This document shows positions 20,109 through 50,591 of a stretch of DNA of 64,000 nucleotides, in pieces. Below the pieces are notes generated by a model. That model had not been told where the DNA came from and searched no databases. It saw only the letters and a list, made by a program, of their open reading frames with translations. Both the position numbers and the translations under genes were made by a program. Source of the DNA: Candidatus Altiarchaeota archaeon (GTDB lineage Archaea; Altiarchaeota; Altiarchaeia; IMC4; SCGC-AAA252-I15); NCBI GenBank assembly GCA_043800255.1, contig JAZDNF010000001.1:32001-96000 (forward strand). Direction: 5' to 3'. Position 1 is the stretch's first letter. Each line of letters starts with the position of its first letter.

Positions 20109-20109
20109 G

Positions 20110-20664: not shown

Positions 20665-20665
20665 C

Positions 20666-30125: not shown

Positions 30126-31194
30126 GGATGTCATAAAGGTTATAGATGGTCTGGGCGAGGAACTTGAGACCAACATAATGGGCGGCAAAGAGCCTAAGAT
30201 GCAGGTCCCCGTCAGGGGCCTGTCCAACGTCAAATTCGACAAGGCGAACAACATACTCCGCCTCGGCAGCAAGAAATCAACCCGGAATTTTTTGAACGTT
30301 GCCCACGCTAAGAAGTTCATGCAGAGCATGCTCATCGCAGGCAAATGCAAGGATCTTGTTTTGAAGGGCAAGACTGCAAGCATAAGGGAACTCTACTACC
30401 AGCTCAAGCATACGATAGCGGACACGAAGGAGAACACATTCGAGGACCAGTCGGAATCAGACCCGCTTATAGTCGATCTTGAGACGATGCTCGGCGTCCT
30501 GAGGGAGGAACTCCATCTTAAGGCAGACGACAAGGGAACGCTCATAGGGAAAGTAATCATAGAGGATTCTGGAGATGTGATCGACTGCTCCAAACTTGGC
30601 AGGAGCGGCCTCTCGATACCGTCCATCGTCGAACACTACAAGTTCAGGAAGGTTGATGCGAAGTACATACTTGTGATAGAGACCGGTGCCATGTTCGACA
30701 GGCTGGTCGAAGAGCAGTTCCACCTGAAAAACAACTGTGTCATGGTGTCGACAAAAGGACAGGCTGCGAGAGGGTGCAGGAGGCTTGTCAACAGGCTGCA
30801 TTTCGAGAAAAAGCTTCCTGTCATAATGTTCACCGACGGCGACCCGTGGGGCTACTACATATACTCTGTGATCAAGGCAGGCTCCATGGCACTAGCTCAT
30901 GAGTCGGAGCGTTTGGGAACTCCAAGCACCAAATTCGTCGGGATGACGATAACCGACGTTGAAGAGTACGGCCTGGAGAAGGTGACTGAGAAGCTGAAGG
31001 ACGTCGACAAGAAACGAATAAACGAGCTGCTGCAGTATCCCTGGTTCCAGAAGAAGGAGTGGAGAAATGAACTCAACCTTATGGCAGAGAAGGGCATCAG
31101 GATAGAGCAGCAGGCTCTTGCATCGAAGTCCCTGGAGTTCGTTGCCGAAGATTATCTACCCCAAAAGATTAAACAAGGAAAACTATTACCCTAA
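30115..31194 (+). CDS. top6A: DNA topoisomerase VI subunit A
   Basis: RELYY, QSESD, IETGAMF, TDGDPWG, EQQAL. Confidence 0.96.
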   Translation: MKDKDVIKVIDGLGEELETNIMGGKEPKMQVPVRGLSNVKFDKANNILRLGSKKSTRNFLNVAHAKKFMQSMLIAGKCKDLVLKGKTASIRELYYQLKHTIADTKENTFEDQSESDPLIVDLETMLGVLREELHLKADDKGTLIGKVIIEDSGDVIDCSKLGRSGLSIPSIVEHYKFRKVDAKYILVIETGAMFDRLVEEQFHLKNNCVMVSTKGQAARGCRRLVNRLHFEKKLPVIMFTDGDPWGYYIYSVIKAGSMALAHESERLGTPSTKFVGMTITDVEEYGLEKVTEKLKDVDKKRINELLQYPWFQKKEWRNELNLMAEKGIRIEQQALASKSLEFVAEDYLPQKIKQGKLLP

Positions 31195-31195
31195 A

Positions 31196-32155
31196 ATGGA
31201 CGGAAACGGCGGAATGGATAAGAGTCTTTCCGACGCCATAGCGCATTTTGAGGGTGAAGAGCTGTTATCCCTTCTTCTCGAAGTAAACCGCATCCCCCAG
31301 AGCAGCGCGGTGACGTTCCTGAACCAAACTCCGGACACGATTGAGGCGTGGGCTCTCGCGCTTGAAACGCAGGGCTGGATAAAAAAGCGCGATCCTGACG
31401 TAGAAGACCCGATACTCGAAATCTCGGCGTCTGGGATGAAAAAAATAGAAGCGCTGCAGAAGAATCTCATAAAGTTCGATGAAGTTGAAGAAAAAGATGA
31501 TAGGAAAAAGTCAGGGGTTAGCCTGAAAAAACTCTTTGGCAAACTGTTCTTAATGGACCGTGTTCTACTCCTGGACATCCTCATCCTCATATCAATGTTT
31601 GCCTCGTTCTATCTCATCTGGAGGTTCTTCGAAGACCCCAACCGTGAGACAGTCAGTTTCCTGGTTTCGATGATACTCTTCTCGCTGATTGTCTTAACCT
31701 ACAAAAGCTATGAAGAGCTTTCGAAGGCGAAGAAAATCAGGGGTTTTTTTGTGGTTGTCTACTCCACCATAGCAGAAATCCTAAAAAGAAGAAAACAGCA
31801 CATACTAGGTTCGATGCTATTGCTTATAACAATGTACTATACTGGTTTATACCTGAACCATAGGATTACGTTATACTTTGGTATGGGAGTGCTATCCCTC
31901 TCCACTTACATACTGCTCTACCAGCCGCGAAGTGGATTAAGGAAGAATGTTATGTTCTATGTGGGCATGCTGATACTCTGCAGTTCATTGCTTTTGATAG
32001 CTGGTGTCGAGAGAATAGTTTTCCCGATATCAAATAAGACTTACAGGATAATTGACATACTCATCGGTCTGCTCGGACTTGCTGTAGTGAAGTTTAACGA
32101 GAAATATTTTGGAGTGAATATTGAACGGTTCAGGGAGTTCTCGTCTGAAGAATAG
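31196..32155 (+). CDS. Hypothetical polytopic membrane protein with possible N-terminal winged-helix domain
   Basis: Soluble N-terminus (PDTIEAWALALETQGWIKK...ISASG) followed by about 6 hydrophobic segments. Confidence 0.6.
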   Translation: MDGNGGMDKSLSDAIAHFEGEELLSLLLEVNRIPQSSAVTFLNQTPDTIEAWALALETQGWIKKRDPDVEDPILEISASGMKKIEALQKNLIKFDEVEEKDDRKKSGVSLKKLFGKLFLMDRVLLLDILILISMFASFYLIWRFFEDPNRETVSFLVSMILFSLIVLTYKSYEELSKAKKIRGFFVVVYSTIAEILKRRKQHILGSMLLLITMYYTGLYLNHRITLYFGMGVLSLSTYILLYQPRSGLRKNVMFYVGMLILCSSLLLIAGVERIVFPISNKTYRIIDILIGLLGLAVVKFNEKYFGVNIERFREFSSEE

Positions 32156-32777
32156 ATGTTATCTCGTCCAAAATACATTCTGCAACATTTTTCAAATCGG
32201 ATTTCCGAACGTGCTTAACTCCTCTCTCCCCTACGATGTAAACCTCTCTTGATTCTGACCCGAATCTGTCCTTTCCAATGTCGTTTGCCACCACCAAATC
32301 CAGGCTTTCAGCCTTTTTCTTCTCTACTGCCCTTTTTATCAGGTCATCATTCTCCACTCCGTATTCAGCCTTGAAAGCTGCAACGAACAAACTTGGGAAG
32401 CTCTTCTTCGCGACTTTTGTCAGTTTTTCCATAGGTGTCAGGATAAGCGTAACACTGTCTCTTGATGAGACCTTACCCCTCAGCCTCTTCTGAGGCTTGA
32501 AATCAGCTATCGCTGCAGCTGATATAAGGACATCATAACCCCGCTTGAGCTCGTCCAAGGTTGCGTTGACCATCTCCTCGGCTGTCCTGACATTCAAAGC
32601 TTTTACGTTGGCAGGGGCCCTGAGGCTTATGGGGCCGCAGACCAGCGTTACCTCATGGCCTCTCCTCTTGGCTTCCTCTGCCAGCGCGATGCCTGTTCTG
32701 CCTGAGCTGGAATTTGTTATATACCTGACGTCGTCTATCGGCTCCTGCGTCGGACCGCAGGTTATGAGAACTCTCAT
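32130..32777 (-). CDS. coaB: Stand-alone phosphopantothenate-cysteine ligase (CoaB domain only)
   Basis: ITCGPTQEPIDDVRYITNSSSG, AAAIADF, AFKAE, VVAND; no CoaC flavoprotein domain. Confidence 0.87.
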   Translation of the reverse strand: MRVLITCGPTQEPIDDVRYITNSSSGRTGIALAEEAKRRGHEVTLVCGPISLRAPANVKALNVRTAEEMVNATLDELKRGYDVLISAAAIADFKPQKRLRGKVSSRDSVTLILTPMEKLTKVAKKSFPSLFVAAFKAEYGVENDDLIKRAVEKKKAESLDLVVANDIGKDRFGSESREVYIVGERGVKHVRKSDLKNVAECILDEITSILQTRTP

Positions 32778-33649
32778 CTTTTTGTTTTCAGAATTGCCTT
32801 AGCAATGGCGTAGGCTTCCCCCAGGTTGATGACTTTATCATTACTTTTGAACAGGTCCTCAACTATCCTATACTGCACTTTCATCTTGAGGCCTCCAATG
32901 GTCAGGGCGCCAAATCTTATCCTACCGTCAACCTTGCCGTTGTCTGTGGGTCTGACTCCTTCGATGCCGTAGGGCGGCACTGCGTTGCAGTCCGCTATGA
33001 CCTTCACGTTGTCGTACTTCAGCCACGACCTTTCCTGGACAAGCTGCACGCCTTCGGAGCCTGTTGCAAGCACTATCTCAGCCGTTGACAGGACTTTTTC
33101 GATCTCTGACTGCGAGGCAGCCACTGCAGGCTCCGCCTTACAGTCGTACATGTCCCTGATTCGTCTGCATGTTGCCTTCGCGCTCTCAATCTTCCTGGAT
33201 GTCAGCGTAACCTCCGCCCCCTCGTTCGCAAGGAGCGCTGCCGACCTCTCGCCAACAGGTCCTGTTCCTGCGACTACCGCAGCCTTTGAGCCTGAGACGT
33301 CAAAGGCATCCGCTATTTTTGCAACACATGCCGAAGAGGTTGTGTTAGCGCCTTCAGGGTCTACTCCTATTGAGATCCTGAACTGGGCTGGAAGCTGACC
33401 AATAACCTCGAGAGACTTCCGGAGAAGCGCTTCCGACAGTCTGCTGTTCTTCCCTCCTATGAAAACTGCAGTGTTCTTCAGGTCTTCCTTCCGTCTTGTG
33501 AAGACACAGCCATGTATGATGTCCTCCACATGGTTCTCATCTACGCTGCCGTAGGGCATGACAATATCCGCACCTGAGTCGTGGGCTACAACAATGTCGA
33601 ACATGCTTGGCACCGTATCAGGCGTCACATAGGCCAAAATCTTTTTCAT
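32774..33649 (-). CDS. mtd: NAD(P)-dependent methylene-H4MPT/H4F dehydrogenase (MtdA/MtdB/MtdC family)
   Basis: PSMFDIVVAHDSGAD, FTR, TAVFIGG, DPEGANTT, AGTGPVG, DCNAVPPYGIEG, GALTIGGLKM. Confidence 0.9.
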   Translation of the reverse strand: MKKILAYVTPDTVPSMFDIVVAHDSGADIVMPYGSVDENHVEDIIHGCVFTRRKEDLKNTAVFIGGKNSRLSEALLRKSLEVIGQLPAQFRISIGVDPEGANTTSSACVAKIADAFDVSGSKAAVVAGTGPVGERSAALLANEGAEVTLTSRKIESAKATCRRIRDMYDCKAEPAVAASQSEIEKVLSTAEIVLATGSEGVQLVQERSWLKYDNVKVIADCNAVPPYGIEGVRPTDNGKVDGRIRFGALTIGGLKMKVQYRIVEDLFKSNDKVINLGEAYAIAKAILKTKR

Positions 33650-33714: not shown

Positions 33715-35601
33715 ATGGAAAACAAGCTGATACCGCCCTGCAGCGCCTCCTGTCCCCTGGGACAGGACGTCAGAGGGTATGTGAACCTGGTAGCTGAAGG
33801 GAGGTTTGAGGAGTCTCTCAGTCTGATACTTGCGACGAATCCAATGCCTTCGGTATGCGGCAGGATATGCGTTCGCGACTGCGAGAGCAACTGCAGGAGG
33901 TCAGCGGTTGACCGGCCTGTAGCAATACGCGCCCTCAAGCGTTTCATCGCGGACAGAGCCGGATATGAGCAGCCGAAGCAGATTAAGAGATTCAAGGAGA
34001 AGGTTGCTGTTGTCGGCGCAGGCCCTGCAGGTTTGGCGGCAGCGCTCTCTCTTGGGGAGTTGGGTTACTCTCCAACGGTCTTTGAAAGAAGGCTGAAGCC
34101 TGGCGGCCTGCTCGCGTCTGTAATACCGTCTTACCGGCTTCCCAAAACCGCGTTGGTGCGCGATTTAGAGAGGGTCACTGGCGGCGTGAGAATAAGGCTC
34201 AAATCCGAACCCGACCTTCGCAATCTGCTTGAGGCGTACGATGCCGTTATCGTGGCCATTGGCGCTCCTCAGAGCAGAAAGTTCAACGTTCCCGGCGAGA
34301 ACCTTGATGGCGTGGTATCTGGCATGGAATTCCTTGAGAAGGTGAAGGCAGGCAAGAAAGTCCGGACAGGCAATGTTGTTGCCGTCGTCGGCGGCGGCAA
34401 CACCGCGTTCGACGCTGCGAGAACCGCCCTGAGAATCGGCTCAAAAAAAGTCTATCTGTTGTACCGGAGGTCAGCTGATGAGATTCCCGCAAATCCTGAA
34501 GAGATTGGGGAGGCGGTGGAGGAGGGGATAATCGTAAAATATCTGGTCTCTCCGAAGTCCATTGTCGGGAGAAACGGGAAGGTGGCTGGCATAATATGCG
34601 TTAGGAACAGGCTGTCAGCGAAGGATTCCAGCGGGCGCAGGAAGCCTGTTCCGATAAGAGGTTCGGAATTCCGCATAAAGGCGGACTGCGTCATAACCGC
34701 TCTGGGCCAGACATCGGAACCGGATAAGATAACTGCAGATAACGTTTTCTACTGTGGCGATGCAGAATCCGGCACATCGGATTTCACAAGAGCCATGGCA
34801 TCAGGCAGGCAGGCGACGCTGGATGCTCATAAGTTCCTAACTGGCAAGACGGAGGGTAGCCTAGTAAACACTGAAGCTCTTGGAGTGATACCTGCAGGCA
34901 CTCTTGAGATAATAGGAAAGCTCCCACGGCAAGAACATAAGAAGCTCGCTCCCAAGAGTAGGAGAAACTTCAGGGAGGTGAACATGTGCTTTGACAATGT
35001 CTCCGCAGTGAAAGAGGCGTTGAGGTGCATGAACTGCGGCGCAGGCGCCGTAGTCAACCCTGACTTATGTGTCGCATGTCTCGCATGCGTTAAAGCATGT
35101 CCCTACGAAGTGCCTGAGATAGTCGACGGCGTAGCATTCATAAGTCCGGACAAATGCCAGTCATGCGGCATCTGCGCCCCGGAATGCCCTGCGAACGCCA
35201 TAAATATGGGGAACAGTTACTCGTATGAGGGAATCAGAGATAAGATAGCTGCCGGCAAGAGGGGCTGCGTCCTGGGATTCGTCTGCAGGTTCGACCGCTT
35301 CTGGAACAGAAAAGGGAAGGGAATCCTAGCACCCAAAAATGCCCGCATCGTCGAGGTTCCCTGCAATGGCGTCATCCACGAGCAGCATTTTTTGGATGCT
35401 ATCGAGGCAGGCTATTCTGGCGTGTTCCTCATAAATTGTAAGGACGAGGACTGCAGACACTACGTCGGCTGCAAGAAGTCCGTCGAGCGCCTGGACGAGG
35501 TTAAACGAGTTTTAAACTCCTCCCATCTAAGAGATTACCCTCTAAACGTCTTGGAGAATTATGGCAAGATTAGGAAGTTCGCCGGCTCCTGCGAAAGATG
35601 A
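33715..35601 (+). CDS. GltD/NfnB(SudA)-like FAD/NADPH oxidoreductase fused to a 2[4Fe-4S] ferredoxin and an MvhD-like domain
   Basis: PCxxxCP, CGRICxxxCExxC, GAGPAG, IPSYRLP, GGGNTA, YRR, RCMNC; CVACLACVKACP, CQSCGICAPECP; C-terminal GFVC...VPCNG...C..EDCRH (MvhD pattern). Confidence 0.85.
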   Translation: MENKLIPPCSASCPLGQDVRGYVNLVAEGRFEESLSLILATNPMPSVCGRICVRDCESNCRRSAVDRPVAIRALKRFIADRAGYEQPKQIKRFKEKVAVVGAGPAGLAAALSLGELGYSPTVFERRLKPGGLLASVIPSYRLPKTALVRDLERVTGGVRIRLKSEPDLRNLLEAYDAVIVAIGAPQSRKFNVPGENLDGVVSGMEFLEKVKAGKKVRTGNVVAVVGGGNTAFDAARTALRIGSKKVYLLYRRSADEIPANPEEIGEAVEEGIIVKYLVSPKSIVGRNGKVAGIICVRNRLSAKDSSGRRKPVPIRGSEFRIKADCVITALGQTSEPDKITADNVFYCGDAESGTSDFTRAMASGRQATLDAHKFLTGKTEGSLVNTEALGVIPAGTLEIIGKLPRQEHKKLAPKSRRNFREVNMCFDNVSAVKEALRCMNCGAGAVVNPDLCVACLACVKACPYEVPEIVDGVAFISPDKCQSCGICAPECPANAINMGNSYSYEGIRDKIAAGKRGCVLGFVCRFDRFWNRKGKGILAPKNARIVEVPCNGVIHEQHFLDAIEAGYSGVFLINCKDEDCRHYVGCKKSVERLDEVKRVLNSSHLRDYPLNVLENYGKIRKFAGSCER

Positions 35602-36206
35602 TACTCACAAAAAAGAAAGACCTGGATGAGATAATAGGGAACCTGGGGAGTGCGAAGAAGATTCTTGTGCTGGGCTGCGGGACATGCGTCACGGTGCACA
35701 AGACCGGCGGGTCGAAGGAGGCCAGAAAGCTCGCATCAGCCATCAAACTGGCGTTCAAGGGCAAGAGGAAGGTTGACGCCTACTCTGACGTCGTTCTCAG
35801 GCAGTGCGAGCCTGACATGGTAGCAGAGCTTTCGGAGGAGATAGACGAATATGATGCGATAGTGTCCCTCGCCTGCGGAGCCGGAGCCCAGCTTGTTGCT
35901 GAAGTCTATCAGACTAAACGGCTTGTCCCAGGCCTTGACACCCAATATATCGGAGTCGTGAAGCCTGAGGGCGAGCGCGAGTACTGCAGGGGATGCGGGC
36001 GTTGCATAATAGGCGAGACTGTTGGCATATGCCCTATAACCGGGTGCGCGAAGTCCATGCTCAATGGCCCCTGCGGGGGAGTCAATGATGGCATGTGCGA
36101 GGTCGAGGGTAGGGGAAAGTGCGTGTGGGTTATGATATTCAACAAGATGAAGGAGATGGGCATGCTGGACGATTTCATGAAAGTTAGGACTAGGAGGGGG
36201 AGATGA
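35598..36206 (+). CDS. metV: Methylene-THF reductase small Fe-S/Zn subunit MetV
   Basis: GCGTC, RQCE, ACGAGAQ, CRGCGRC, GICPITGCAKSMLNGPCGG, CVW. Confidence 0.88.
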   Translation: MILTKKKDLDEIIGNLGSAKKILVLGCGTCVTVHKTGGSKEARKLASAIKLAFKGKRKVDAYSDVVLRQCEPDMVAELSEEIDEYDAIVSLACGAGAQLVAEVYQTKRLVPGLDTQYIGVVKPEGEREYCRGCGRCIIGETVGICPITGCAKSMLNGPCGGVNDGMCEVEGRGKCVWVMIFNKMKEMGMLDDFMKVRTRRGR

Positions 36207-37093
36207 GCAAGCTTTCCGAGAATTTCGGCAGACGTTTTGTGGTGACCGGTGAGATAGCCCCACCTAGGGGACACGACCTCACCTCATTCAACCATGAGGT
36301 CGAATTCTTCAAGCCGCTGATGAAAAAACTGTATGCTGTGAACGTTGTCGACATACCCGGGTCTCTGCTGCTCATGAGCTCGCTTGGGGCGAGCATACTA
36401 TTGCAGCAGAACAGGCTGGAGCCTGTCTTCCAGATGGTGTGCAGGGACAGGAACGTCCTAGCCTTGGAGGCTGACCTGATCTCTGCGGCTGCGTTTGGCA
36501 TAGAGAACGTTCTAGCGCTCACCGGAGACCATCCTAAGGTTAAGAGCAGCGACCACAAGGACGCGAGGCCTGTGTTCGACCTGGATTCTTCCAGGCTGAT
36601 CAAGGTCGTGAAGGGCATGAACGATGGGGTTGACATCAACGGGAGGAAGCTTAACATGAAGACAAGCTTTTTCTTGGGAGCTGCGCTCGCTCCGGGAGTG
36701 AATCCCCTAGAGCCTGAAATATACAAGACACGGAGGAAGCTTTTTGCAGGCGCCGATTTCTTCCAGACGCAGGCGGTGTTCGAGCCTGAGCTGATGGAGT
36801 CGTTCTTCAGGGGATATGAGAAGGTTTTCAAGGAGGACGTCAGGAAGAAGGTTCTGATGAGCGTCGTCCCATTGTACTCGTATGACATGGTACGGTTCCT
36901 CAAGACCATGCCAGGCATCGTGATATCAGACAAGACTGGAAAGCGCATAAAGCAGGCGAAAGACCCCCTAAAGGCAGGCGTTGACATAGCGGTTGAGGTT
37001 GTTGAAAAAGCCAGGGACATGAACGTTGCCGGTGTGCATGTGATGCCTGCAGGAAAGACGGAGGCTCTTGTTGAAATCCTGAACAGGATATGA
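36203..37093 (+). CDS. metF: Methylene-tetrahydrofolate(-pterin) reductase MetF
   Basis: TGEIAPP, QMVCRDRN, LALTGD, PVFDLDS, GADFFQTQ, GVHVM. Confidence 0.92.
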   Translation: MSKLSENFGRRFVVTGEIAPPRGHDLTSFNHEVEFFKPLMKKLYAVNVVDIPGSLLLMSSLGASILLQQNRLEPVFQMVCRDRNVLALEADLISAAAFGIENVLALTGDHPKVKSSDHKDARPVFDLDSSRLIKVVKGMNDGVDINGRKLNMKTSFFLGAALAPGVNPLEPEIYKTRRKLFAGADFFQTQAVFEPELMESFFRGYEKVFKEDVRKKVLMSVVPLYSYDMVRFLKTMPGIVISDKTGKRIKQAKDPLKAGVDIAVEVVEKARDMNVAGVHVMPAGKTEALVEILNRI

Positions 37094-37967: not shown

Positions 37968-38702
37968 CTAATCTTTTATCCTCCACTCGTTGGAGTAGAC
38001 ATTGAACTTGGAATTGCGGGCGAATCCTGCAAGCGTCACACCCAACTTATCGCCCAAAATCAGCGCCCTGGAGAGCGGGGCGGTGTTCGAAACAACGAGG
38101 GGGATTCCAACCCTAACTGCCTTTGTGACTATCCCGGAAGATAGCCTGCCTGTGAAGAGCAGGAACTTGTCGCCAAGCGCTACGCTCTCCTGGAGAGCCC
38201 ATCCGACGACCTTGTCCAAGGCGTTGTGCCGTCCGACATCCTCAAAAAAAGAGAGACGCTTACCCTCTGCGGACATGAGGAAGGCGGCGTGCGTCCCGCC
38301 TGTCGCAGACCACTCCAACTCCCTGTCAGAAAAATTGTCAAGCGACTTCAATATGACCTTTCTGCTGAACCTTCCATCCCTGTCAAGAGGCTCAGGCTCG
38401 CGCTGCATGATGCCAGAGCATCCTGAGCTTCTCAGCTCTGTGAGAAGCTCAAGCCGGTCCTTACCGCTTACTTCAACTTTCACGGCGCTGCCATCAACCT
38501 TAACGTCCCTGATGTCCTCGTAATCGCAAACTCCTTCGGAGACGAGGAAGCCGACCGCCAGCTTGTCCAAGTGGCGGGGCAGAGCGAAGATGGAAATGAA
38601 CTTCAGACCGTTCACATACACTGTGACAAGCTCCTCGTCGGAGACCGCATCATCCCTCAACTCCTCCCTGTCGGAGTAGAAGACCCTTACCCTTCTGTTC
38701 AT
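37968..38702 (-). CDS. fdhD: Formate dehydrogenase accessory sulfurtransferase FdhD
   Basis: AVGFLVSEG, SSGC, TGGTHAA, EDVGRHNALDK, TGRLS. Confidence 0.93.
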   Translation of the reverse strand: MNRRVRVFYSDREELRDDAVSDEELVTVYVNGLKFISIFALPRHLDKLAVGFLVSEGVCDYEDIRDVKVDGSAVKVEVSGKDRLELLTELRSSGCSGIMQREPEPLDRDGRFSRKVILKSLDNFSDRELEWSATGGTHAAFLMSAEGKRLSFFEDVGRHNALDKVVGWALQESVALGDKFLLFTGRLSSGIVTKAVRVGIPLVVSNTAPLSRALILGDKLGVTLAGFARNSKFNVYSNEWRIKD

Positions 38703-39145
38703 GCCTTTTCCCTAGTCTGAGAATAGCCCCGTATTATCTCCTCAACGTCAGGCACTTCCTCTTTTGTCGGTTCGACTGTGATGGTCATGCCCTTGAAGTT
38801 CGGCGACCCTGTCTGCAGCGTTTCCGCCTCCACGATTGAGTTGATCCAGGGGCCTTTGGGGACGAATACAATGCCTCTGGGAGTCTCGCCAGCCTTAGCG
38901 TACAATGTAATGCTGGACACCCCTGAGGTGAGCTTTACCCTGCCGTCGTCTTGGACGTTCAAGGTTGCCATGTCCTCAGGATTCATGTAGCACGTTCCAG
39001 CAGCCGTCCTGTAGTCGTCCTTGTGCGTCATCTTCCTGCCGCTGCGCATTATCACACCCTGCTTGGAATCTGAGCCGGTGTCCAATATGACCTTCAGCTT
39101 CACCCTGAGGTAATCTCTCACGCTTTTGAAACCTTCCGGTATCAT
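38699..39145 (-). CDS. fwdD: Formylmethanofuran dehydrogenase subunit D
   Basis: MNPEDM, VFVPKGPWIN, GSPNFKG; start could be an internal GTG. Confidence 0.88.
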   Translation of the reverse strand: MIPEGFKSVRDYLRVKLKVILDTGSDSKQGVIMRSGRKMTHKDDYRTAAGTCYMNPEDMATLNVQDDGRVKLTSGVSSITLYAKAGETPRGIVFVPKGPWINSIVEAETLQTGSPNFKGMTITVEPTKEEVPDVEEIIRGYSQTREKA

Positions 39146-40443
39146 CCTCTCACCTTCCTAATCTCCTGGTAGATTTTTGAGAGCGTCTCCTCGTCTGAGG
39201 ACGTGAACTCGAACGGAGACTTCAGGAACTTTCTGGCTGTCAACGGCACGTTGTCCATCCTATAGTATGTGGCGTCAGATTCGAAGCCGCTTATAACTCC
39301 CGGTATGACCAGATCTGCCATATACGTTGTCGGCGTCGGAGCCACGTCTATCGATATCAGCGGTATCTTTGCCATGTGCTCCACGCACTTCCGGGGGAAG
39401 TGGGCGACAGGGTCTGCTGATATGCTTAGCATGGCGTCGATCTCCCCCTCTCTCAAGAGGTCGATTATGGAAGTCTCCCCAGGGTTATAGCGCGGGTAGC
39501 CTCTGAAGAAGTCAACAGCAAACGGGTAGCCTGTCCTCCATGTCAGGACTTCGTTGAATCCTGCGACATTATAATGGCCTCTCATCGGTATCACAGAGAA
39601 CCTGGTGTGGTCGTTCAAAGTCTTCACAAGTTCGAGCAGATTTTCGATGTTATAGGCTTTCATGCCTGAGTGGGTGAGGCCGAGGCCTATGAATGCGACG
39701 CCATACTGGCATTTTTTCAGCATTTCAGCGAGCTTTTCAACGTCTCTCAGCTTGAGGCCAGCGACCTCGCTTACGTTCAGCGTCTCTCCATTGATGATCG
39801 CCCTTAGGGCTGAGATGAGCTCGAAATCGCTGTTAGGTTCTATCTGGTAGAAGAAGTTCGCCAGCTTTGCTGTAGTGCTCTTCCTCGTGTCTATCACTAT
39901 GATCTTCCTGTCCCTCCTGCCCTGCTCCCTGTACATTCCCCTCGGGTATGTTCCAAAGCGTGACATGTGCCTCGGGTGGGACTCCATCGGGTTTGAGCCC
40001 CAGTACACTATCAAGTCAGAGTAGTTCATCACCATACCCAGGGTGCAGGTCGGAAGCCCGCTCATCTGCTCCCCCAGTATCGTCGGCCCGTGGCAGTGGG
40101 ATGACTGGCTGTCGATGTAGCCTCTTATGTGCTCTGCGATGTCGACTCCGACTTTTATGGCCTCGCACGAGTTCTCGCTCCACCCATACAGGAGGGGGCG
40201 CTCGGCTTCGGTGAGCATCCTGGCAGCCTCCTTTACTGCCTCCTTCCAGCCGATCTCCTCTGCCTTTCCGTTGACTTTGAGTGTCGGCTTCATGATGCGT
40301 TCCATTCTGCCGATTTCCTCGAATTTAGACTTGCCGACAAGGCAGGCGCCGTTGACTTTGACGATTCTGCCGTCTTCCAACTCTACGATGATGTCGTCGC
40401 ATCCGCATCCGCATACCGGGCATGTTATGTCCTTATATATCAT
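39142..40443 (-). CDS. fwdB: Formylmethanofuran dehydrogenase subunit B (Mo/W-pterin)
   Basis: CPVCGCGCDD, HCHGP (Cys ligand, not Sec), HPRHMSR, MRGHYNV, YRMD. Confidence 0.95.
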   Translation of the reverse strand: MIYKDITCPVCGCGCDDIIVELEDGRIVKVNGACLVGKSKFEEIGRMERIMKPTLKVNGKAEEIGWKEAVKEAARMLTEAERPLLYGWSENSCEAIKVGVDIAEHIRGYIDSQSSHCHGPTILGEQMSGLPTCTLGMVMNYSDLIVYWGSNPMESHPRHMSRFGTYPRGMYREQGRRDRKIIVIDTRKSTTAKLANFFYQIEPNSDFELISALRAIINGETLNVSEVAGLKLRDVEKLAEMLKKCQYGVAFIGLGLTHSGMKAYNIENLLELVKTLNDHTRFSVIPMRGHYNVAGFNEVLTWRTGYPFAVDFFRGYPRYNPGETSIIDLLREGEIDAMLSISADPVAHFPRKCVEHMAKIPLISIDVAPTPTTYMADLVIPGVISGFESDATYYRMDNVPLTARKFLKSPFEFTSSDEETLSKIYQEIRKVRG

Positions 40444-41186
40444 CTTCTGATCCTGACCTCCCCCTTCCCTTTGAAGCTTACGTCGCCATCGTATAAGATG
40501 TACTGCCCGTCTTCGCCCTTCCTTTTGAGGTAGAATGGAGCGTCCATTGGCGTTTCTACTGTAATCGATCCCTTCTTCATAGCATATCCCAGCGGGCTTC
40601 CGCACTCTCTGGCTTTGATGGTTCCCCCACTCATGTAACTTCCTGTGAATTTCTCGACTCTGCCCTCTACTGTTATCTCCCCCCCTATAAGTCCTTTCCC
40701 GACGTCCAATCCGACGTTGCCTCCCACTTTGATGGTTCCGCCGCTCATTCCCGAGTCCTCTCCTCTAACAGCGCAGCCGACATAGCATTCCACGCTCCCC
40801 TTAACTTCTATGGTGCCTCCTCTCATGCCAGTCCCAACCCAGCCTCCAGCGTCCTCTTCGACTATTATGCTGCCGCCTACCATGCCCTCGCCGAGGTGCA
40901 GGCCTGCGCCGCCTTTGACCAGTATCTCGCCTGCCTTCATATCCTCCCCGATTCTTTTAACCTTTGAGAAGTCTCCCTCCAGCAGGAGCTTCTGGTCTTC
41001 AGGCTTTTTGGCAATCTCACCCTCGATTTGGAAGACCTCGCCCAACGTTTTCTTCCTGTTGCCTGCGTAGACTTCAAGCTCCAGTATCTGCTTCATGGTC
41101 TTGCCTGCGAAGGACTCAGGCTTCAAAGCCTCCGCCTCGATCGGATAGTCCAATTTTTCCTTCAGCTTAATTGTTAACGTCTTCAT
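40440..41186 (-). CDS. fwdC: Formylmethanofuran dehydrogenase subunit C
   Basis: GxxMxGG beta-helix repeats; VKRIG. Confidence 0.93.
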   Translation of the reverse strand: MKTLTIKLKEKLDYPIEAEALKPESFAGKTMKQILELEVYAGNRKKTLGEVFQIEGEIAKKPEDQKLLLEGDFSKVKRIGEDMKAGEILVKGGAGLHLGEGMVGGSIIVEEDAGGWVGTGMRGGTIEVKGSVECYVGCAVRGEDSGMSGGTIKVGGNVGLDVGKGLIGGEITVEGRVEKFTGSYMSGGTIKARECGSPLGYAMKKGSITVETPMDAPFYLKRKGEDGQYILYDGDVSFKGKGEVRIRR

Positions 41187-42765
41187 CTCTCACCCTATAA
41201 TTTGAAAGCCCAACGCTGTAGTATCTCCTGAAGAAGGTGCTGAGTTCATCGTCCAGTTCTTTGTTGTCAACTTTCCTGTCAGTGTGCTTTGTAACGCCCT
41301 TGAACGATTTTGCCACAACGCCGTCCTTGACGACAAGTTCGCCCTTTATCACTGAGTAATCTGCCTTGGTGAAGCCCTCCTCTATCCCGTTGCTTAAGTC
41401 ATAGACCGCGAAGCCGGCTTCCGCTCCCTCCCTTATCCCGTCATACTTGAGCCCCAGTATCCTGGCCGGGGTGCTCCTAGTGACTTTGGCTATCTCATAG
41501 AGCGTGTACTCCCTGTCCAGGCTCAGGAGCGTTGTCTTCTTCTCAAAGGCGGGGTTCAGGGTTTTCGCGTACTCTTCCCTCCCTTTCCTGCTCATCAGCC
41601 ACTCGATTATCCTGGGATACCTTATGTAGGGCCCAGCGTTTGGGTGGTCTGTTGACAGGCAGACCCTGTCAAGGTCCTCGGCCAACAGCATCAGCTCCAG
41701 TCCAACAGCCCATTGGGTGGAGTTGACTGGGTTCTTGCTGGAGTAGTGTATTGGGACTATGCCTGCGCCGTGCTCCAGCTCGACGTCGCCTGAAGTCCAC
41801 TTCTCGTGTATCAGCTTCGAAAGGTATTGTTCGAAGGGGCTGTCAGCGGTGAGCGTCGTAGTGTAGTCCAGTGTTATCTGGCCGACGTCGAACGTTATCC
41901 TCTTGTCCTTATTGACGTGCTTCATTATCTCATCAGTCTTGGAGCAGAATTCCTTCCACGAGTCTCCGCCGTAGCTGTTGAACTGCAGGTGGGTCACGTG
42001 CATTCTCTTCTCTGTCAGGCTCATCTCCTCGAGCGCTGACATATAATTCCCATAATAGCCCATCCCGTTCAAGTGTATGTGTATCGGGTGGGGGAGCTCT
42101 AGCTCGTTGTTCGCCCTCTCCAGGTTTCTTATTATGTCCGATGGTGTGATGTCAAGTTTCGGTATCATTGAGTCAGGTTTAGTCTTCTTCTGGTTCCAAA
42201 CCCATGAGAGGAACGCTCCAGGAGCTACGAGCTTTATCCCGTACGTTTTCGTCCTGTCAAGCATCCATGCGACATAATCGGTTAACTTCTCCGTCTCACC
42301 CCTCCTTATGAAATCAGCCACCAGGTAGTTGTTGCCAAGCATCAGGAGCCCGACCTTGTCCATGAGCGGTATGTCGTTCACCTCGTGATGGTAGTGTTTC
42401 ACCTTGAGGGGCGAGACGTCCGGGACGCAGAGTGTGCTATAACCCATAAGCGCGTACTGGTATCCTGTGAGGAACGTTGAGGGGCATGAGAACCCGGAAC
42501 CTGAACGGAGGCTCCCTCTGGACTCCAAGACAACGCTCTTGTCTTCAGGCCGCATCATCCTCGCGGCGTTCACAGCCGAGCCTGCTACGTGGGTGTGAAT
42601 GTCAACGCCTGAAGGCATGAGCACCTTGCCCTTCGCGTCTATGACCTCAGGCTTCCCCTTCGCCTTTCCAACGATCCTGCCATTCTCGACGAGGACGCTC
42701 ATCACCTCCCCGTCTATCTTGTTGACTGGGTCGTAGACTTTTGCGTTTCTGAACTCTAAGGCCAT
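41167..42765 (-). CDS. fwdA: Formylmethanofuran dehydrogenase subunit A (amidohydrolase)
   Basis: VYDPVN, DIHTH, HIH, THLQF, QWAVGLE, TDHPNAGP. Confidence 0.95.
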   Translation of the reverse strand: MALEFRNAKVYDPVNKIDGEVMSVLVENGRIVGKAKGKPEVIDAKGKVLMPSGVDIHTHVAGSAVNAARMMRPEDKSVVLESRGSLRSGSGFSCPSTFLTGYQYALMGYSTLCVPDVSPLKVKHYHHEVNDIPLMDKVGLLMLGNNYLVADFIRRGETEKLTDYVAWMLDRTKTYGIKLVAPGAFLSWVWNQKKTKPDSMIPKLDITPSDIIRNLERANNELELPHPIHIHLNGMGYYGNYMSALEEMSLTEKRMHVTHLQFNSYGGDSWKEFCSKTDEIMKHVNKDKRITFDVGQITLDYTTTLTADSPFEQYLSKLIHEKWTSGDVELEHGAGIVPIHYSSKNPVNSTQWAVGLELMLLAEDLDRVCLSTDHPNAGPYIRYPRIIEWLMSRKGREEYAKTLNPAFEKKTTLLSLDREYTLYEIAKVTRSTPARILGLKYDGIREGAEAGFAVYDLSNGIEEGFTKADYSVIKGELVVKDGVVAKSFKGVTKHTDRKVDNKELDDELSTFFRRYYSVGLSNYRVRDEDVNN

Positions 42766-42766
42766 C

Positions 42767-43219
42767 TTATGCGAAATCCAGTGCATCATAGGGGCAGGAG
42801 TCAGCGCATATCCTGCACTTCTTGTCATCGCCGAAGCGCCTGCACTTTTTCAGGTTCACTATCCTGACTTTGCCCTTGGCGACCCTCAACACGACGTCCT
42901 CGCTCTCAGGGTCTTTGCCTCCTCCGGCGCTCGGGTCATGCATCGCTGACACGGGGCACGCTATCACGCAGTTCCCGCAGCCAGTGCACCTGTCCTCGTT
43001 TATTATTATGCCAGTCTCCTCAGACTTAGCCCTGCCTGAGAGCATGGTCTCAAGCTCTTTCTTATGCTTTGAGAAGCTCTCTTGGAGTATCGGAGTGCAT
43101 TCGACAATCTTCGCATCTCCCTTGAGCAGCTTTGACGCGAATCCCATGCACGTGTCTACTCCGCATTTCCCGCAGTTCAGGCCGGGCAGCTTTTTGTAGA
43201 CTTCCATCAGGTTTACCAT
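42767..43219 (-). CDS. fwdG: FwdG-like ferredoxin with N-terminal FeS domain
   Basis: LPGLNCGKCG..TC; CTGCGNCVIACPV; CRICADSCP. Confidence 0.78.
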   Translation of the reverse strand: MVNLMEVYKKLPGLNCGKCGVDTCMGFASKLLKGDAKIVECTPILQESFSKHKKELETMLSGRAKSEETGIIINEDRCTGCGNCVIACPVSAMHDPSAGGGKDPESEDVVLRVAKGKVRIVNLKKCRRFGDDKKCRICADSCPYDALDFA

Positions 43220-43223
43220 CCTC

Positions 43224-44588
43224 TTACCTCCATTTCTCCTTCACGAACTTCCCTATCTCGGACGAGTCTCTCGGGCCTATGAGGACTTCCCATCCTGTCT
43301 CATCTTCTATTGTTCCTCTGATCTGCGAGGCGAACATCGGCAGTATAAGCTTCCTGTGCTTTACCTTATCTGCAAGCTTGCTGTTTTCGATGGCCTCCCT
43401 TATCTTCGACCCTGACAGGTCTCCTGTCGCGATTGCAGTGTCGACCGCAAAACCTTTGGTTCCTACAACCAGAAGGTAGCTGTCTATGCTGCTCTTCTGC
43501 AGGTCTCCAGCCACTGTGAAATACGTCAGGGAGAAGTTGGTTGTCACAAAGACAGGCGAATTCTCGCCCGGCTTTCCTATCTCATACAGCTTAGCATCCA
43601 CCTCAGGTTCCGTCCTCGGGTCAGTGTATATGTTCTGCCTCAGCGTCAGCATGTGAATCAGCGACCACGGCTCTATGGAGTGGACCACTATCAGGGATGC
43701 GAACCTTGACAGCAGAGCGCATGCCAGGACAGTCTCATAGTATGCTGCCATTATTCTGTCCTTTGTGCCGGTCCAGGCTATTGCAGGCACTCCCATAAGA
43801 GGATAGCCGAGTTCCCTGACGTTCTTTACAGCCGACTTCCTGAGCATCGTGAAACCTTCAATGGTGTTCTTGAGGCCTGAGCCTACAGGCATCGTCCCAG
43901 GGTCTAAGACTACGTTATCGTGGCCCAGATTGGAAGCTATGCTGCCGAGCATGTCGAAATCGTTGGAATAGACTGCCATGGGCGCGTTGTACCTCTCTGA
44001 GAGGGCGTTAACCTTCTCCCAGTTTTTCTCGTTGGCTGCGTAAATCAGAGGCCGCCTGCCATCGAGCTTTTTGAGGCCTGCCTCCAGCGCTTTCGGGTCG
44101 AAGGAGCACAATACCATCGGACCGTTAAAGCTCTTAGCGACTCTCTCGACCGTTTTAGCGTATTTTTCAGGATTTTTGGATGCGCATCTCACTGCTATGG
44201 CATCCAGTCTAAGTTTCTCCCCAATCCTCTCCAGCACGAAGTTCTTGACAAAGTTGATTCTGCCGTCTATCTCGGCGTCGGGCATGGTATCGCTGACGTC
44301 GACCGCTATCCTGCAGGGGTTGAAGAACTTCAGCTCGTGCCTGTACATGACCTCCTCGCCCCCCAATGTCATCCCCTCAGGATGGCCGAATCTGACCTCC
44401 TTGACAGGGGGAGTGACCATGTCCATCAGCTTCCCGAGGTTCTCCTTGACTATGTACGGGCACTCGCCCAGCTTCCGCCCCCTGTCTATGAGCTTTATGG
44501 CGAAGCTCATGCACGTGTTCTCCCCGCAGTCCTTGCAGTTCGTCTTCGGCAGGAGCTTGTAGAGCTCCATTGCGGTTGTTCTGGGCAT
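43224..44588 (-). CDS. cdhE: ACDS corrinoid Fe-S protein large (gamma) subunit
   Basis: LPKTNCKDCG..TCMSFA, LRQNIYTDP, TTNFSLTYF, GPRDSS. Confidence 0.95.
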   Translation of the reverse strand: MPRTTAMELYKLLPKTNCKDCGENTCMSFAIKLIDRGRKLGECPYIVKENLGKLMDMVTPPVKEVRFGHPEGMTLGGEEVMYRHELKFFNPCRIAVDVSDTMPDAEIDGRINFVKNFVLERIGEKLRLDAIAVRCASKNPEKYAKTVERVAKSFNGPMVLCSFDPKALEAGLKKLDGRRPLIYAANEKNWEKVNALSERYNAPMAVYSNDFDMLGSIASNLGHDNVVLDPGTMPVGSGLKNTIEGFTMLRKSAVKNVRELGYPLMGVPAIAWTGTKDRIMAAYYETVLACALLSRFASLIVVHSIEPWSLIHMLTLRQNIYTDPRTEPEVDAKLYEIGKPGENSPVFVTTNFSLTYFTVAGDLQKSSIDSYLLVVGTKGFAVDTAIATGDLSGSKIREAIENSKLADKVKHRKLILPMFASQIRGTIEDETGWEVLIGPRDSSEIGKFVKEKWR

Positions 44589-45742
44589 TATCCCATCACC
44601 ACCCAATCCTCGTAATCTAGTTCAGGCTTTTTCTTCTCGTCCCAGAAGAGGTTTATGACCTCCTTCACGGATGCTATCGCAGCAGGGTGGAGCATCATGT
44701 ACAAATCAGTCCCAGAGAAGAGCGCAATGATCCCTGTTATCGTCTCCCAGAGGGGGCCTCTCAGCTCCTTGGGGCCCAATGCTGGGTCTTTTATCCACGC
44801 CTCTCTGGCGCTCCACGCGTTCGAGACTCCTGCCATTATCGGCATGGCGAGGTCCTTGTCGCCTTTCAGGGCAGACAGCCTTATCCTCTCCATCGTGCTG
44901 ATTGAGTACTCTATCCCATAGCCGAGGGAGGCCATGTTCGGGTCCATTATTATCCTGTCTGCAGGAAGGCCTCCCTTCATGATTTTCTTGTTCATCTGTT
45001 TCATCCCTGGGACGTCCATCGAAACCAGTGACAGTATCAGATGGTTGTGCTCTACCGCTGCCTTTACTACTGTCTCGTATCCCATGCCTGGCGAGACTGA
45101 GGATATGAGTACCCTCTCCCCTGACGCCGCCTCGGCGGCCTTTGTCAGGACTTCAGCGTCCTTCTCATAGTTTCCTGAGCCTGATATTATTATCGGGACT
45201 TTCACAGCCTGTAGGACGTCTTCAACGGTTTTAACCGCATCCTTCGCAGGCCTGTTCCACAGGTTCGGGTCTGTGCTCACCAAATGAAGCGTGACCATGT
45301 CTGCGCCGAAGTCTTTGACCTGTTTTTTCGCCCACTCCGCCGGATCTTTCATCGCATCGCCAAAATTCTCCTTGACGAATCCTGGCAGCCTGAAGGGCAC
45401 GTCGAAGACGTCGTGGCTTATTATCGGCTTGTTGGGCATCTTCCCCTCGAAGAAGTAAAGTGGTGGTGCGGTCTCCCCGCCTATCCTGAGCGTCTTACCC
45501 CTTGTGCCTCCTTCAGAGCTTGTTGCTCCCAGCGTGACCTCATGTACCCTGTTAGCGTACGATTCTGCAGGAATCTGGAACCTGAACTTCCTCTCAACCT
45601 GTTTAGCCTTCTCGACTGCCTTCCTCACGCTCTGCATTATGGCGTGCGGCATCAGCCCAAGCTCTATCTCCTCCGCCTCGAGGTTGAAGTCCTCTATCTC
45701 AAGCTCCTCAATGCCTTTCAGTATGTCCTCTATGTCTATCAT
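44588..45742 (-). CDS. cdhD: ACDS corrinoid Fe-S protein small (delta) subunit
   Basis: DPAEWAK, HLVSTDP, LGYGIEY, NAWSAREAW, MMLHP. Confidence 0.95.
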   Translation of the reverse strand: MIDIEDILKGIEELEIEDFNLEAEEIELGLMPHAIMQSVRKAVEKAKQVERKFRFQIPAESYANRVHEVTLGATSSEGGTRGKTLRIGGETAPPLYFFEGKMPNKPIISHDVFDVPFRLPGFVKENFGDAMKDPAEWAKKQVKDFGADMVTLHLVSTDPNLWNRPAKDAVKTVEDVLQAVKVPIIISGSGNYEKDAEVLTKAAEAASGERVLISSVSPGMGYETVVKAAVEHNHLILSLVSMDVPGMKQMNKKIMKGGLPADRIIMDPNMASLGYGIEYSISTMERIRLSALKGDKDLAMPIMAGVSNAWSAREAWIKDPALGPKELRGPLWETITGIIALFSGTDLYMMLHPAAIASVKEVINLFWDEKKKPELDYEDWVVMG

Positions 45743-46485
45743 GTCAGCCCCCCTGCAAAGGATGAGACGCTATTGTAAGCTTCCGAGTCTGCCGGCAGAT
45801 TTATCAGAGGCTTTCCTTCGAGGTCGTATTCTGCCACAAGCGTGTCCTCAGGTATCAGCCCTATGACGTCTATGCCAACTTCCTTCGCCTCCTTGAGCAT
45901 GAGTTCCCTGTTCCCGCTCTTCACCCTGTTCAGCACAAGGAACATGCTGTCGAACTCTATCCCCAGCTCTTTGGCAAGATCTTTTATCCTTCTAGCGGTG
46001 AGGAAACCCTTCTTTGACGGGTCTGTCACTATCAGCATGGTGTTGACGTTCTGCGTCGTCCTTCTGGACATGTGCTCCAGGCCTGCTTCGGCGTCTATGA
46101 TGCAGTAGTCGTAAGCCTGCGTGGTCTCGTCTATTATGTTCCTCAGCAGGTGGTTTATGGCGCAGTAGCATCCCGGCCCTTCAGGCCTGCCCATGACGAT
46201 GAGGTCGAATCCGTCCTCCTCCACTGTTATCTCGAAGACCTTGGAGGACAGGTGTTTCTCCTTCTCAACTCCCGGGGGGAGTTTCTCGCTGAGGAGGTCT
46301 TCCCTTATGTCGCCTACTGTCTTCTCGAATTTCACGTTCAAGGATTCGGCCAGGTTGGAGTCTGGGTCTGCGTCTATGGCAAGCAGACTTCCTTTGCCGC
46401 TCTCCTTTATCGCTCTCACCAATAAAGCGGAGAGCAGCGTCTTCCCGACCCCTCCCTTGCCTGATACTGCTATTATCTTTACCAT
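45739..46485 (-). CDS. cooC: Nickel-insertion ATPase CooC/AcsF
   Basis: GKGGVGKT, DADP, GPGCYC, EAGLEHMSR. Confidence 0.93.
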   Translation of the reverse strand: MVKIIAVSGKGGVGKTLLSALLVRAIKESGKGSLLAIDADPDSNLAESLNVKFEKTVGDIREDLLSEKLPPGVEKEKHLSSKVFEITVEEDGFDLIVMGRPEGPGCYCAINHLLRNIIDETTQAYDYCIIDAEAGLEHMSRRTTQNVNTMLIVTDPSKKGFLTARRIKDLAKELGIEFDSMFLVLNRVKSGNRELMLKEAKEVGIDVIGLIPEDTLVAEYDLEGKPLINLPADSEAYNSVSSFAGGLT

Positions 46486-50416: not shown

Positions 50417-50591
50417 CTTTCTCAACTTCTGTCGTGTGGTTCATGAAGTCTATCTTCTTTATCCTGCAGTTTTCCAGCTCTGTTTTTTTACCGAGAATGT
50501 CTGAGATTATCAGTTTCCTGTCAGATATTGTTATCCTGGCAGCTTCTTTTACTATCTCTTCCCCGTCTAATACCACCTTTGATTCGCACAT
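50406..50591 (-). CDS. cooT: CooT-family nickel-binding protein
   Basis: N-terminal MCES, DILG, IKKIDFMNH; first gene of the CODH operon. Confidence 0.85.
   Translation of the reverse strand: MCESKVVLDGEEIVKEAARITISDRKLIISDILGKKTELENCRIKKIDFMNHTTEVEKDED

Follow-up and report, generated by a model that had tools for sequence, protein, structure and literature searches.

A GltD-like ferredoxin-MvhD fusion encoded with MetV and MetF as a candidate NADPH-dependent methylene-tetrahydropterin reductase in an Altiarchaeota archaeon

In a 64,000-nt stretch of contig JAZDNF010000001.1 from a Candidatus Altiarchaeota archaeon (hereafter the window, meaning this whole stretch), three open reading frames (ORFs) of 628, 202 and 296 aa lie in tandem on the plus strand at 33715-37093 and encode a flavoprotein fused to a ferredoxin domain and an MvhD-like domain, followed by MetV and MetF. 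We consider it probable, with moderate confidence, that the three genes specify a soluble NADPH-dependent methylene-tetrahydropterin reductase in which electrons run along a linear, non-bifurcating wire, and that this enzyme takes the step of the F420-dependent reductase Mer in an F420-free archaeal Wood-Ljungdahl pathway. The unit is best filed as a gene-cluster variant of the MetVF-type methylene-tetrahydropterin reductases that is absent from the published scheme and carries an NAD(P)H-input module of the StnC/NfnA lineage. A sequence-only reading of this DNA had described the 628-aa protein with its GltD-like, two-[4Fe-4S] and MvhD-like parts, a set of motifs, MetV, MetF and the ATGA overlaps between the genes, and all of these were seen again in the ORFs, Pfam matches and translation. 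It had also proposed that the flavin bifurcates electrons as in NfnB, with MvhD in place of the [2Fe-2S] cluster of NfnA, and this part is disfavoured by the cluster ligand, the topology, the continuity of the fold and the energetics.

Domain architecture of the fusion protein

Pfam divides the fusion protein (P0001) into Fer4_20 (residues 7-82, 71 bits), Pyr_redox_2 (residues 96-342, 82 bits), two Fer4 domains (residues 446-496) and FlpD/MvhD (residues 535-605, 51.8 bits against a cut-off of 22.3). The translation holds GAGPAG at residues 101-106, IPSYRLP at 137-143, GGGNTA at 226-231 and YRR at 250-252, and two CxxCxxCxxxCP motifs occupy residues 452-463 and 481-492. In alignment, GGGNTA and YRR agree with the NADPH-binding chains of StnC and NfnB. 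An identity as GltD was not found, as all NCBIfam GltD-type models scored under their cut-offs and no gene with a Glu_synthase domain is adjacent. In the MvhD-like domain, C524, C550, C575 and C580 stand opposite Cys residues of the solved MvhD chains 8rvv_F and 5odc_D in phmmer alignments, and we take them to be the ligands of a [2Fe-2S] cluster.

Conservation was read from a 45-member alignment made up of the window's fusion, four archaeal homologues, 12 from one bacterial order and 28 database matches chosen for spread. R141, C438, C441 and the eight Cys of the ferredoxin domain are invariant (45/45), the position of K75 is Lys in 44 of the 45, and the cluster Cys of the core and ferredoxin domain as a whole are kept in 43-45. 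The pyridine-nucleotide motif is divided, with YRR in 28/45 homologues and CLE after the second Rossmann strand in 17/45. Because CLE replaces YRR in these 17, part of the fusion family probably uses NADH.

A flavin module of the StnC/NfnA type

From sequence and model comparisons, the flavin module of the fusion is predicted to be of the StnC/NfnA(Bfu) type, the kind that serves for NADPH input in Bfu-type transhydrogenases, and not a canonical NfnB, a placement made because of its three-Cys-plus-Lys cluster ligation, its cluster spacing and its permuted first half. The sequence-only reading had assigned the core to GltD/NfnB; the NADPH-type motifs and the Arg stand, but the N-terminal cluster domain proved to be incomplete, with its missing half at residues 437-441. 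A sequence search of the PDB returned as its top three chains 9n5u_A (NfnA of Thermococcus sibiricus NfnABC), 9bov_A (NfnA of Caldicellulosiruptor NfnABC) and 8oh5_C (StnC of Sporomusa ovata), ahead of canonical NfnB and GltD. With the AlphaFold2 (AF2) model of the fusion (mean predicted local distance difference test score, pLDDT, 88.1; predicted template modelling score 0.87), the same three entries again came first in Foldseek and VIA-align. VIA-align superposed model residues 2-501 on 9bov_A (Z 47.3, 488 aligned residues) and gave Z 46.2 with a root-mean-square deviation of 2.0 for 8oh5_C, against Z of about 37 over model residues 4-377 only for canonical NfnB. Since the superposition continues through residue 501, the fused ferredoxin domain would occupy the place of the next wire clusters of NfnA/StnC.

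The residues around the flavin point the same way. C13, C52, C56 and K75 of the fusion align with C108, C147, C151 and K170, which ligate the first cluster after the flavin adenine dinucleotide (FAD) according to the Csac NfnABC paper (PMC11829005). K75, in the sequence ALKRF, thus aligns with K170 of StnC/NfnA, where NfnB of T. maritima and P. furiosus has Glu in LERF. The spacing is C-x3-CE-x2-C in the fusion and in StnC/NfnA, and C-x5-CE-x2-C in NfnB. On these alignments, C13, C52, C56 and K75 are the predicted ligands of the proximal cluster, while C9 and C60 would belong to the distal one. The Fer4_20 match is partial at its N-terminus (profile positions 30-108 of 113, against 1-109 for the genome's own NfnB), and the missing RCxxC half is placed after the flavin domains, C438 and C441 making up the cluster domain's first CxxC. 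The same half, recognizable as 'R..NF.EV...EA.RC..C', spans residues 402-441 in the fusion and is N-terminal in the genome's NfnB; canonical NfnB has its first CxxC at the N-terminus, and the three solved chains, including 9n5u_A and 9bov_A, are arranged as in the fusion.

Likeness to Bfu NfnA and StnC therefore comprises the permuted cluster domain, the three-Cys-plus-Lys proximal cluster, GGGNTA/YRR and a [4Fe-4S] domain next in line. The fusion differs from them in beginning at their residue ~97-101, without the N-terminal [2Fe-2S] domain, so that the match of its model is confined to chain residues ~97-676, and in ending with MvhD where they carry a formate-dehydrogenase/NuoG-like domain. 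No HydB/HydC-like partner gene was found by Pfam among the genes neighbouring the fusion. With canonical NfnB/NfnL (4ylf_B, 5jca_L) the fusion shares the fold for FAD and NADPH, the IPxYRLP Arg and a pair of [4Fe-4S] clusters by the flavin, but it has none of the Glu ligand in LERF, the C-x5-CE spacing, the contiguous N-terminal cluster domain or the NfnA partner of those proteins; no gene for an NfnA/NfnS partner ([2Fe-2S] plus FAD) adjoins it. The StnC and NfnA(Bfu) papers describe the FAD of the NADPH-input module as non-bifurcating, an entry point at the end of the chain, and R239 of StnC is conserved although that FAD is non-bifurcating.

In the fusion tree, the fusions are monophyletic with respect to canonical NfnB (100%), with the inner branching not resolved. 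P0001 lies on a long branch with its orthologue from genome G009 and one Actinomycetota-labelled protein, and an approximately unbiased (AU) test did not reject a single archaeal fusion clade (p 0.467). No donor of the archaeal fusions can be named on this tree. HdrL of Desulfobacterium was considered as a family for the fusion and rejected, being a far larger HdrA-GltD fusion for which the available literature gives no link to metF.

MetV and MetF

Both downstream genes were clear Pfam matches (MetV, PF12225, 94.9 bits against a cut-off of 23; MetF, PF02219, 93.1 bits against 24). In MetV (P0002), 12 Cys are invariant or almost so over an alignment of 30 homologues. Its AF2 model reached a pLDDT of 77, with the Cys-rich part poorly predicted; Foldseek against the PDB gave no match at E <= 0.001 (the best was a Dph2 domain at 1.1e-3), and sequence search found no solved relative. 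For comparison, two [4Fe-4S] clusters have been measured in the MetVF of C. ljungdahlii, and the flavin of its MetF is flavin mononucleotide (PMC8760232). The nearest named relatives of the window's MetF carry Candidatus Altiarchaeales or Altiarchaeota labels at 48-66% identity, and the protein falls inside the class's own MetF clade (99% SH-aLRT), apart from the MetF encoded beside the bacterial fusions. The MetF clade is native to the class; therefore it is the partner module that varies around a native MetF.

Distribution and gene order

The three genes are joined by ATGA stop/start overlaps at 35598-35601 (fusion/MetV) and 36203-36206 (MetV/MetF). Full-type fusion homologues were found, by a search with the C-terminal part of P0001, in 6 of 61 genomes of the class (G000, to which the window belongs, and G008, G009, G015, G017 and G019), spanning three genera of one family. 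MetV and MetF lie directly 3' of the fusion in 4/5 relatives; in the fifth, G009, only 162 nt of contig follow the fusion, and MetV-MetF stand at the start of another contig.

Outside the class, the best database matches of the fusion have the full domain set at 35-42% identity and are mostly bacterial, with the labels Brocadiales, Chloroflexota, Nitrospirota, Actinomycetota and Desulfobacteria. In an anammox-like order of Planctomycetes, exactly one fusion gene is present in 58 of 61 genomes. The neighbourhoods of 30 loci from these 58 genomes were inspected with a 1.5-kb flank: MetV is directly downstream in 19/30 and MetF in 22/30, at least one of the two in 28/30, and MetF without MetV in 9, while two loci have neither within 1.5 kb. 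The synteny survey thus shows the gene order of the unit to be conserved across two domains, Archaea and Bacteria, and together with the ATGA overlaps it bears out the earlier claim that an NADPH-type flavoprotein is co-translated with MetV-MetF. A scan of genome contigs, which provides examples and not frequencies, gave mostly plain GltD/NfnB-like genes among the matches listed. A plain GltD-like gene adjoins MetVF in one metagenome-assembled genome (MAG) of Chloroflexota and one of Deltaproteobacteria, and at least four other MAGs appear to have the order GltD ... Fd-MvhD-MetV-MetF with ~2.5 kb separating the GltD part from the rest.

MetF also occurs in other arrangements within the class, where surroundings were viewed in 20 further genomes. 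In eight of them (G002, G003, G004, G006, G012, G013, G016 and G023) a mini-MetV of 50-96 aa lies directly 5' of MetF. Of the MetV Cys it retains just the final four, which align with C150-C175 of P0002, and it is 56-67% identical to P0002 residues 150-200. These loci have a window-like TopoVI-DFP-(Mpt_N) synteny, and no fusion or Hdr gene was found at any of them. Positions of mini-MetV ORFs are G006:C94:7520-7657, G012:C12:120318-120488 and G002:C14:20829-20999, with 16 more. Full-length MetV-MetF without a redox neighbour is seen in G001, G034 and G035. The G036 locus (L137, C41:3000-12120) reads Mpt_N-ThyA-MetV-MetF-DUF166, and a canonical NfnAB pair lies convergent to it; within this order, the pair may be a further link between NADPH and MetVF. 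G032 (L154, C143:1-9060) has HdrC-HdrB-HdrA-MetV-MetF-DUF166, its HdrA of 1128 aa having two flavin modules and a fused MvhD; this archaeal HdrCBA-MetVF cluster resembles the type IV arrangement of Moorella. In G043, HdrA-MvhD, HdrC and HdrB lie a few kb off MetV and MetF. Separately, an in-frame TGA was seen in MetV-like frames 5' of MetF at G037:C29:32353-32604 and G049:C15:7609-7863, which could stand for selenocysteine, or reflect a broken frame or an error in sequencing.

Genome context of the Mer step

The genome measures 1.75 Mb and is 93% complete. A look for sequencing runs turned up four of DNA, all from a single groundwater study, and none of RNA. A search found no Mer in the genome, nor in any of the 61 class genomes, of which 56 have MetF and 50 MetV. 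Since Mer is missing, MetF, present as the genome's single methylenetetrahydrofolate reductase (MTHFR) gene, is the sole candidate for the reduction of methylene-tetrahydromethanopterin (methylene-H4MPT), in line with the earlier suggestion of a stand-in for Mer. Genome searches for FrhB, CofE, McrA and formyl-tetrahydrofolate synthetase also found none. The description of a reductase without HdrA holds as well: there is no HdrA in the genome (the best match to the HdrA model is the Fd-MvhD part of the fusion, whose 36.5 bits fall far short of the cut-off of 1400), and no HdrBC, the single CCG protein being encoded among FAD-oxidase (GlcD-like) genes rather than hdr genes. The fused copy is the genome's only FlpD/MvhD domain. 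Elsewhere the genome has two Ftr genes, a canonical NfnA/NfnB-like pair on another contig (above NCBIfam cut-offs), ThyX (Pfam) and a folate cluster GlyA-FolD-KaiC-PurH-FolC-FolP on a separate contig (G000:C13:35000-46000, L194). In the window, MetVF lies within 20 kb of the genes for formylmethanofuran dehydrogenase (Fwd), the archaeal carbon monoxide dehydrogenase/acetyl-CoA synthase (CODH/ACS; Cdh) and methenyl-H4MPT cyclohydrolase (Mch), and adjoins an MtdA/B-like dehydrogenase (Table 1).

Proposed mechanism and energetics

Judging from motifs and homology, NADPH would reduce the FAD of the GltD-like module by hydride transfer. Single electrons would leave by the Lys-ligated proximal [4Fe-4S] cluster and the distal [4Fe-4S] cluster that the permuted CxxC completes, and then move over the two clusters of the ferredoxin domain to the [2Fe-2S] cluster of MvhD and on to the clusters of MetV. 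The MetF flavin would regather them and, as the context suggests, reduce methylene-H4MPT to methyl-H4MPT for the archaeal CODH/ACS. The unit would reduce no ferredoxin, and its reaction would probably be near equilibrium and reversible. NADPH could come from the sulfhydrogenase-like hydrogenase encoded in the window, and could be shared with the neighbouring MtdA/B-like dehydrogenase, while the separate canonical NfnAB pair would serve the exchange between ferredoxin and NADPH. The fusion would in this way do the job of RnfC2 in type III enzymes, or of the GltD domain of HdrA in Moorella type IV, without the HdrA flavin or HdrBC.

As to the carrier, H4MPT is clearly the more probable, because of the neighbouring genes, the pathway that would otherwise be broken and the archaeal-type Cdh; tetrahydrofolate (H4F) is a lesser though real possibility, given the folate genes of the cell. 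Little free energy is released in the Mer reaction, which puts the methylene/methyl-H4MPT couple near -330 mV. On that value, little or no energy would be left for reducing ferredoxin from NADPH. Published values are an E0' of -200 mV for methylene-H4F/methyl-H4F and -320 mV for NAD(P)H (PMC9430772), and a potential of -360 mV is cited in the literature for F420.

Several points weigh against the linear NADPH-dependent reductase. The MetVF enzymes tested to date do not use NAD(P)H unaided (PMC8760232), and the donor role therefore rests wholly on the fusion. In 15/45 homologues the MvhD-like domain has no Cys at the position of C550. The fusion of the window and its G009 orthologue (L003) have a gap of ~30 alignment columns just ahead of the GD motif in the FAD domain (residues ~336-344, window 34720-34760), a stretch that the other 11 printed sequences of the 45-sequence alignment keep. 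The folate cluster and ThyX imply that methylene-H4F is present in the cell as a possible substrate. The fusion may also have a second electron outlet beside the linear wire.

Alternative explanations

The first alternative is electron bifurcation, in which the GltD-like FAD would split NADPH electrons between the MvhD-MetV-MetF branch and a [4Fe-4S] branch to free ferredoxin for Fwd and CODH. It has in its favour that the fusion places two kinds of Fe-S module around one FAD, that the Arg equivalent to the invariant R141 hydrogen-bonds the flavin N5 in NfnB, that Fwd and Cdh require reduced ferredoxin, and that with methylene-H4F (E0' -200 mV) the exergonic branch would yield about -23 kJ/mol. 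However, the proximal cluster has a Lys ligand and not the Glu of NfnB, the permuted topology is that of StnC/NfnA, whose FAD is non-bifurcating, and the Arg is equally conserved as R239 of StnC without bifurcation. Moreover, the [4Fe-4S] chain runs on into the fused ferredoxin domain in the geometry of NfnA/StnC and therefore has no surface end of the kind a ferredoxin site would need. With the couple near -330 mV, NADPH would have hardly any driving force toward methylene-H4MPT, and the canonical NfnAB pair already covers the link between ferredoxin and NADPH. We therefore regard bifurcation as unlikely. Its broadest form, a minimal NAD(P)H-driven bifurcating or confurcating methylene-pterin reductase without HdrA that would supply low-potential electrons for CO2 fixation in Altiarchaeota and nearly all anammox-type Planctomycetes, is quite unlikely.

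An anabolic role appears improbable as well. Here the same linear wire would turn GlyA-made methylene-H4F into methyl-H4F for methionine and methylations, with no Wood-Ljungdahl flux. The GlyA-FolD-PurH-FolC-FolP cluster and ThyX are encoded, MetF belongs to a folate-enzyme family, and an H4F set of such kind, including a proposed role for MetVF, has been described in Methanosarcinaceae (Chadwick 2022). Against this, MetVF stands outside the folate cluster, beside the MtdA/B-like gene and <20 kb from Fwd, Cdh and Mch, and the lack of formyl-tetrahydrofolate synthetase noted above fits it poorly. With Mer missing from 61/61 class genomes and MetF present in 56/61, the H4MPT methyl branch (two Ftr, Mch, Fwd, Cdh) would be broken without MetF. 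Published work on the lineage also puts MetF in the pathway (Bird 2016).

It is very unlikely that the fusion is not a MetVF subunit at all, but a free-standing NADPH:ferredoxin-type oxidoreductase or the partner of another protein that merely shares the operon: Xfn- and NfnB-like proteins can serve other acceptors and 2/30 bacterial loci have no MetV or MetF within 1.5 kb, but the genes are ATGA-coupled in the window, their order is identical in archaea and bacteria, MvhD domains are known to act as adaptors in clusters of the MetFV-Hdr-MvhD kind (PMC8760232; PMC9430772), and the genome has no other MvhD domain than the fused one.

Relation to known systems

The scheme in print divides MTHFRs into types I-IV (PMC8760232; PMC9430772), and a GltD-ferredoxin-MvhD fusion with MetVF is in none of these types as published in the available text. 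We found no description of a GltD-Fd-MvhD/MetV/MetF unit in the literature covered, a scope that did not take in supplements. Published drawings of hdrA-mvhD-metVF clusters from Chloroflexi and Actinobacteria list Pyr_redox_2 and FlpD in the parts available, and may hide such units.

The closest comparison is with type IV, the MetFV-HdrCBA-MvhD of Moorella thermoacetica and Sporomusa ovata, which shares the MetVF core, an MvhD module and a single gene cluster; the HdrA of Moorella has an inserted GltD domain as its NAD(P)H site (PMC9430772). The present unit differs in that it has neither the thioredoxin-reductase-like flavin of HdrA (the proposed bifurcating site) nor HdrB and HdrC, and in that GltD, ferredoxin and MvhD parts are united in one 628-aa chain with an NADPH-type motif in an archaeal H4MPT host. 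The likeness to type III, MetFV-RnfC2 of Acetobacterium woodii, is functional, as both join the MetVF core to an extra Fe-S flavoprotein that oxidises pyridine nucleotides. The type III enzyme is soluble and non-bifurcating (PMC8760232), and in A. woodii uses NADH and H4F; going by its name and described domains, RnfC2 would be no relative of the GltD-like fusion. F420-dependent Mer catalyses the identical pathway step with an unrelated electron donor system.

MetF with MetV in archaea that lack Mer is already in print for ANME-1, Bathyarchaeota and Altiarchaeales. For ANME-1, Bathyarchaeota and others, MetF has been put in place of Mer with the donor left open (Chadwick 2022), and for Altiarchaeales the use of MetF for Mer together with a bacterial-type NADP-dependent methylene-H4MPT dehydrogenase is known (Bird 2016, citing Probst 2014). 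The papers on ANME-1-type MetF name, in their available text, no GltD-ferredoxin-MvhD partner.

Genomic neighbourhood

The features of the locus and its surroundings are collected in Table 1. A TATA-like sequence, TTTATAGATAA, lies ~30 nt 5' of the fusion ATG, inside the 65-nt gap to the divergent Mpt_N-type gene. At the relatives' loci (L003-L007), a divergent ORF of 290-304 aa takes the position of the Mpt_N gene beside the fusion, the comparison being by length and position. For the four hydrogenase genes the best NCBIfam matches are HydB/G/D/A and ShyA-D, every one of them under its cut-off.

Table 1. Features of the fusion-MetV-MetF locus, parts of the fusion protein, and related genes, in window coordinates
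Feature	Position	Strand	Basis
Fusion protein, 628 aa: NADPH-oxidising GltD-like flavoprotein (predicted), ferredoxin domain and MvhD-like domain	33715-35601	+	ORF, Pfam, AF2 model
Fusion: N-terminal half of two-[4Fe-4S] cluster domain, residues 1-85	33715-33969	+	Alignment to 9bov_A, 8oh5_C
Fusion: FAD and NADPH Rossmann domains, residues 93-380 (GAGPAG, R141, GGGNTA, YRR)	33991-34854	+	Pfam Pyr_redox_2; alignments to NADPH-binding StnC/NfnB chains
Fusion: permuted segment, residues 400-441, ending RCMNCG	34912-35037	+	Second BLASTP high-scoring segment pair against the genome's canonical NfnB
Fusion: 2x[4Fe-4S] ferredoxin domain, residues 445-500	35047-35214	+	Pfam Fer4 x2; superposition on NfnA/StnC
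Fusion: MvhD/FlpD-like domain, residues 515-610 (C524, C550, C575, C580), predicted [2Fe-2S]	35257-35544	+	Pfam FlpD; phmmer alignment
MetV, 202 aa, full-length	35598-36206	+	Pfam PF12225; alignment
MetF, 296 aa, methylene-tetrahydropterin reductase, Altiarchaeota clade	36203-37093	+	Pfam PF02219; homologue labels; tree
Mpt_N-type (MtdA/B-like) methylene-H4MPT dehydrogenase, divergent neighbour of fusion	32774-33649	-	Pfam Mpt_N
Four-gene sulfhydrogenase-like (group 3b-like) [NiFe] hydrogenase, candidate H2-to-NADPH supplier	507-4274	+	Pfam
FdhD, then formylmethanofuran dehydrogenase subunits (38699-42828)	within 37968-50425	-	Pfam
CODH/acetyl-CoA synthase cdh genes, five-gene archaeal set	43224-50425	-	Pfam
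Methenyl-H4MPT cyclohydrolase (Mch)	54865-55746	-	Pfam MCH

Some further genes of the window were recorded apart from the reductase locus. Between 11791 and 18495 of the window, subunit B of RNA polymerase comes as two genes of 478 and 602 aa, and Rpb1 domains 1-5 are united in a single ORF of 1153 aa; in many archaea the Rpb1 domains are divided between an A' and an A'' gene. ORFs of 504 aa (50761-52275, minus strand), 282 and 309 aa (19217-20973, minus strand) and 345 aa (31118-32155, plus strand) have no Pfam match at E <= 1e-5. Several relatives have a Pfam-less ORF of a length near that of the 345-aa ORF, likewise beside TopoVI-A.

Significance

The physiological donor of the MetVF-type MTHFRs is a long-standing open point in the bioenergetics of acetogens (PMC8760232; PMC9430772), and for the archaeal MetF in the place of Mer the donor has explicitly been called unknown (PMC9012536). 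For one class of organisms, the unit described here offers a small and concrete answer to the question of the MetF donor, in the form of three proteins in which the entry point for pyridine nucleotides is fused to an adaptor domain. In the anammox-like order, which relies on the Wood-Ljungdahl pathway to fix carbon, nearly all sampled genomes carry the unit as well. If bifurcation were true, the unit would be a new minimal bifurcating enzyme. If the linear wire is true, these organisms conserve no energy at this step.

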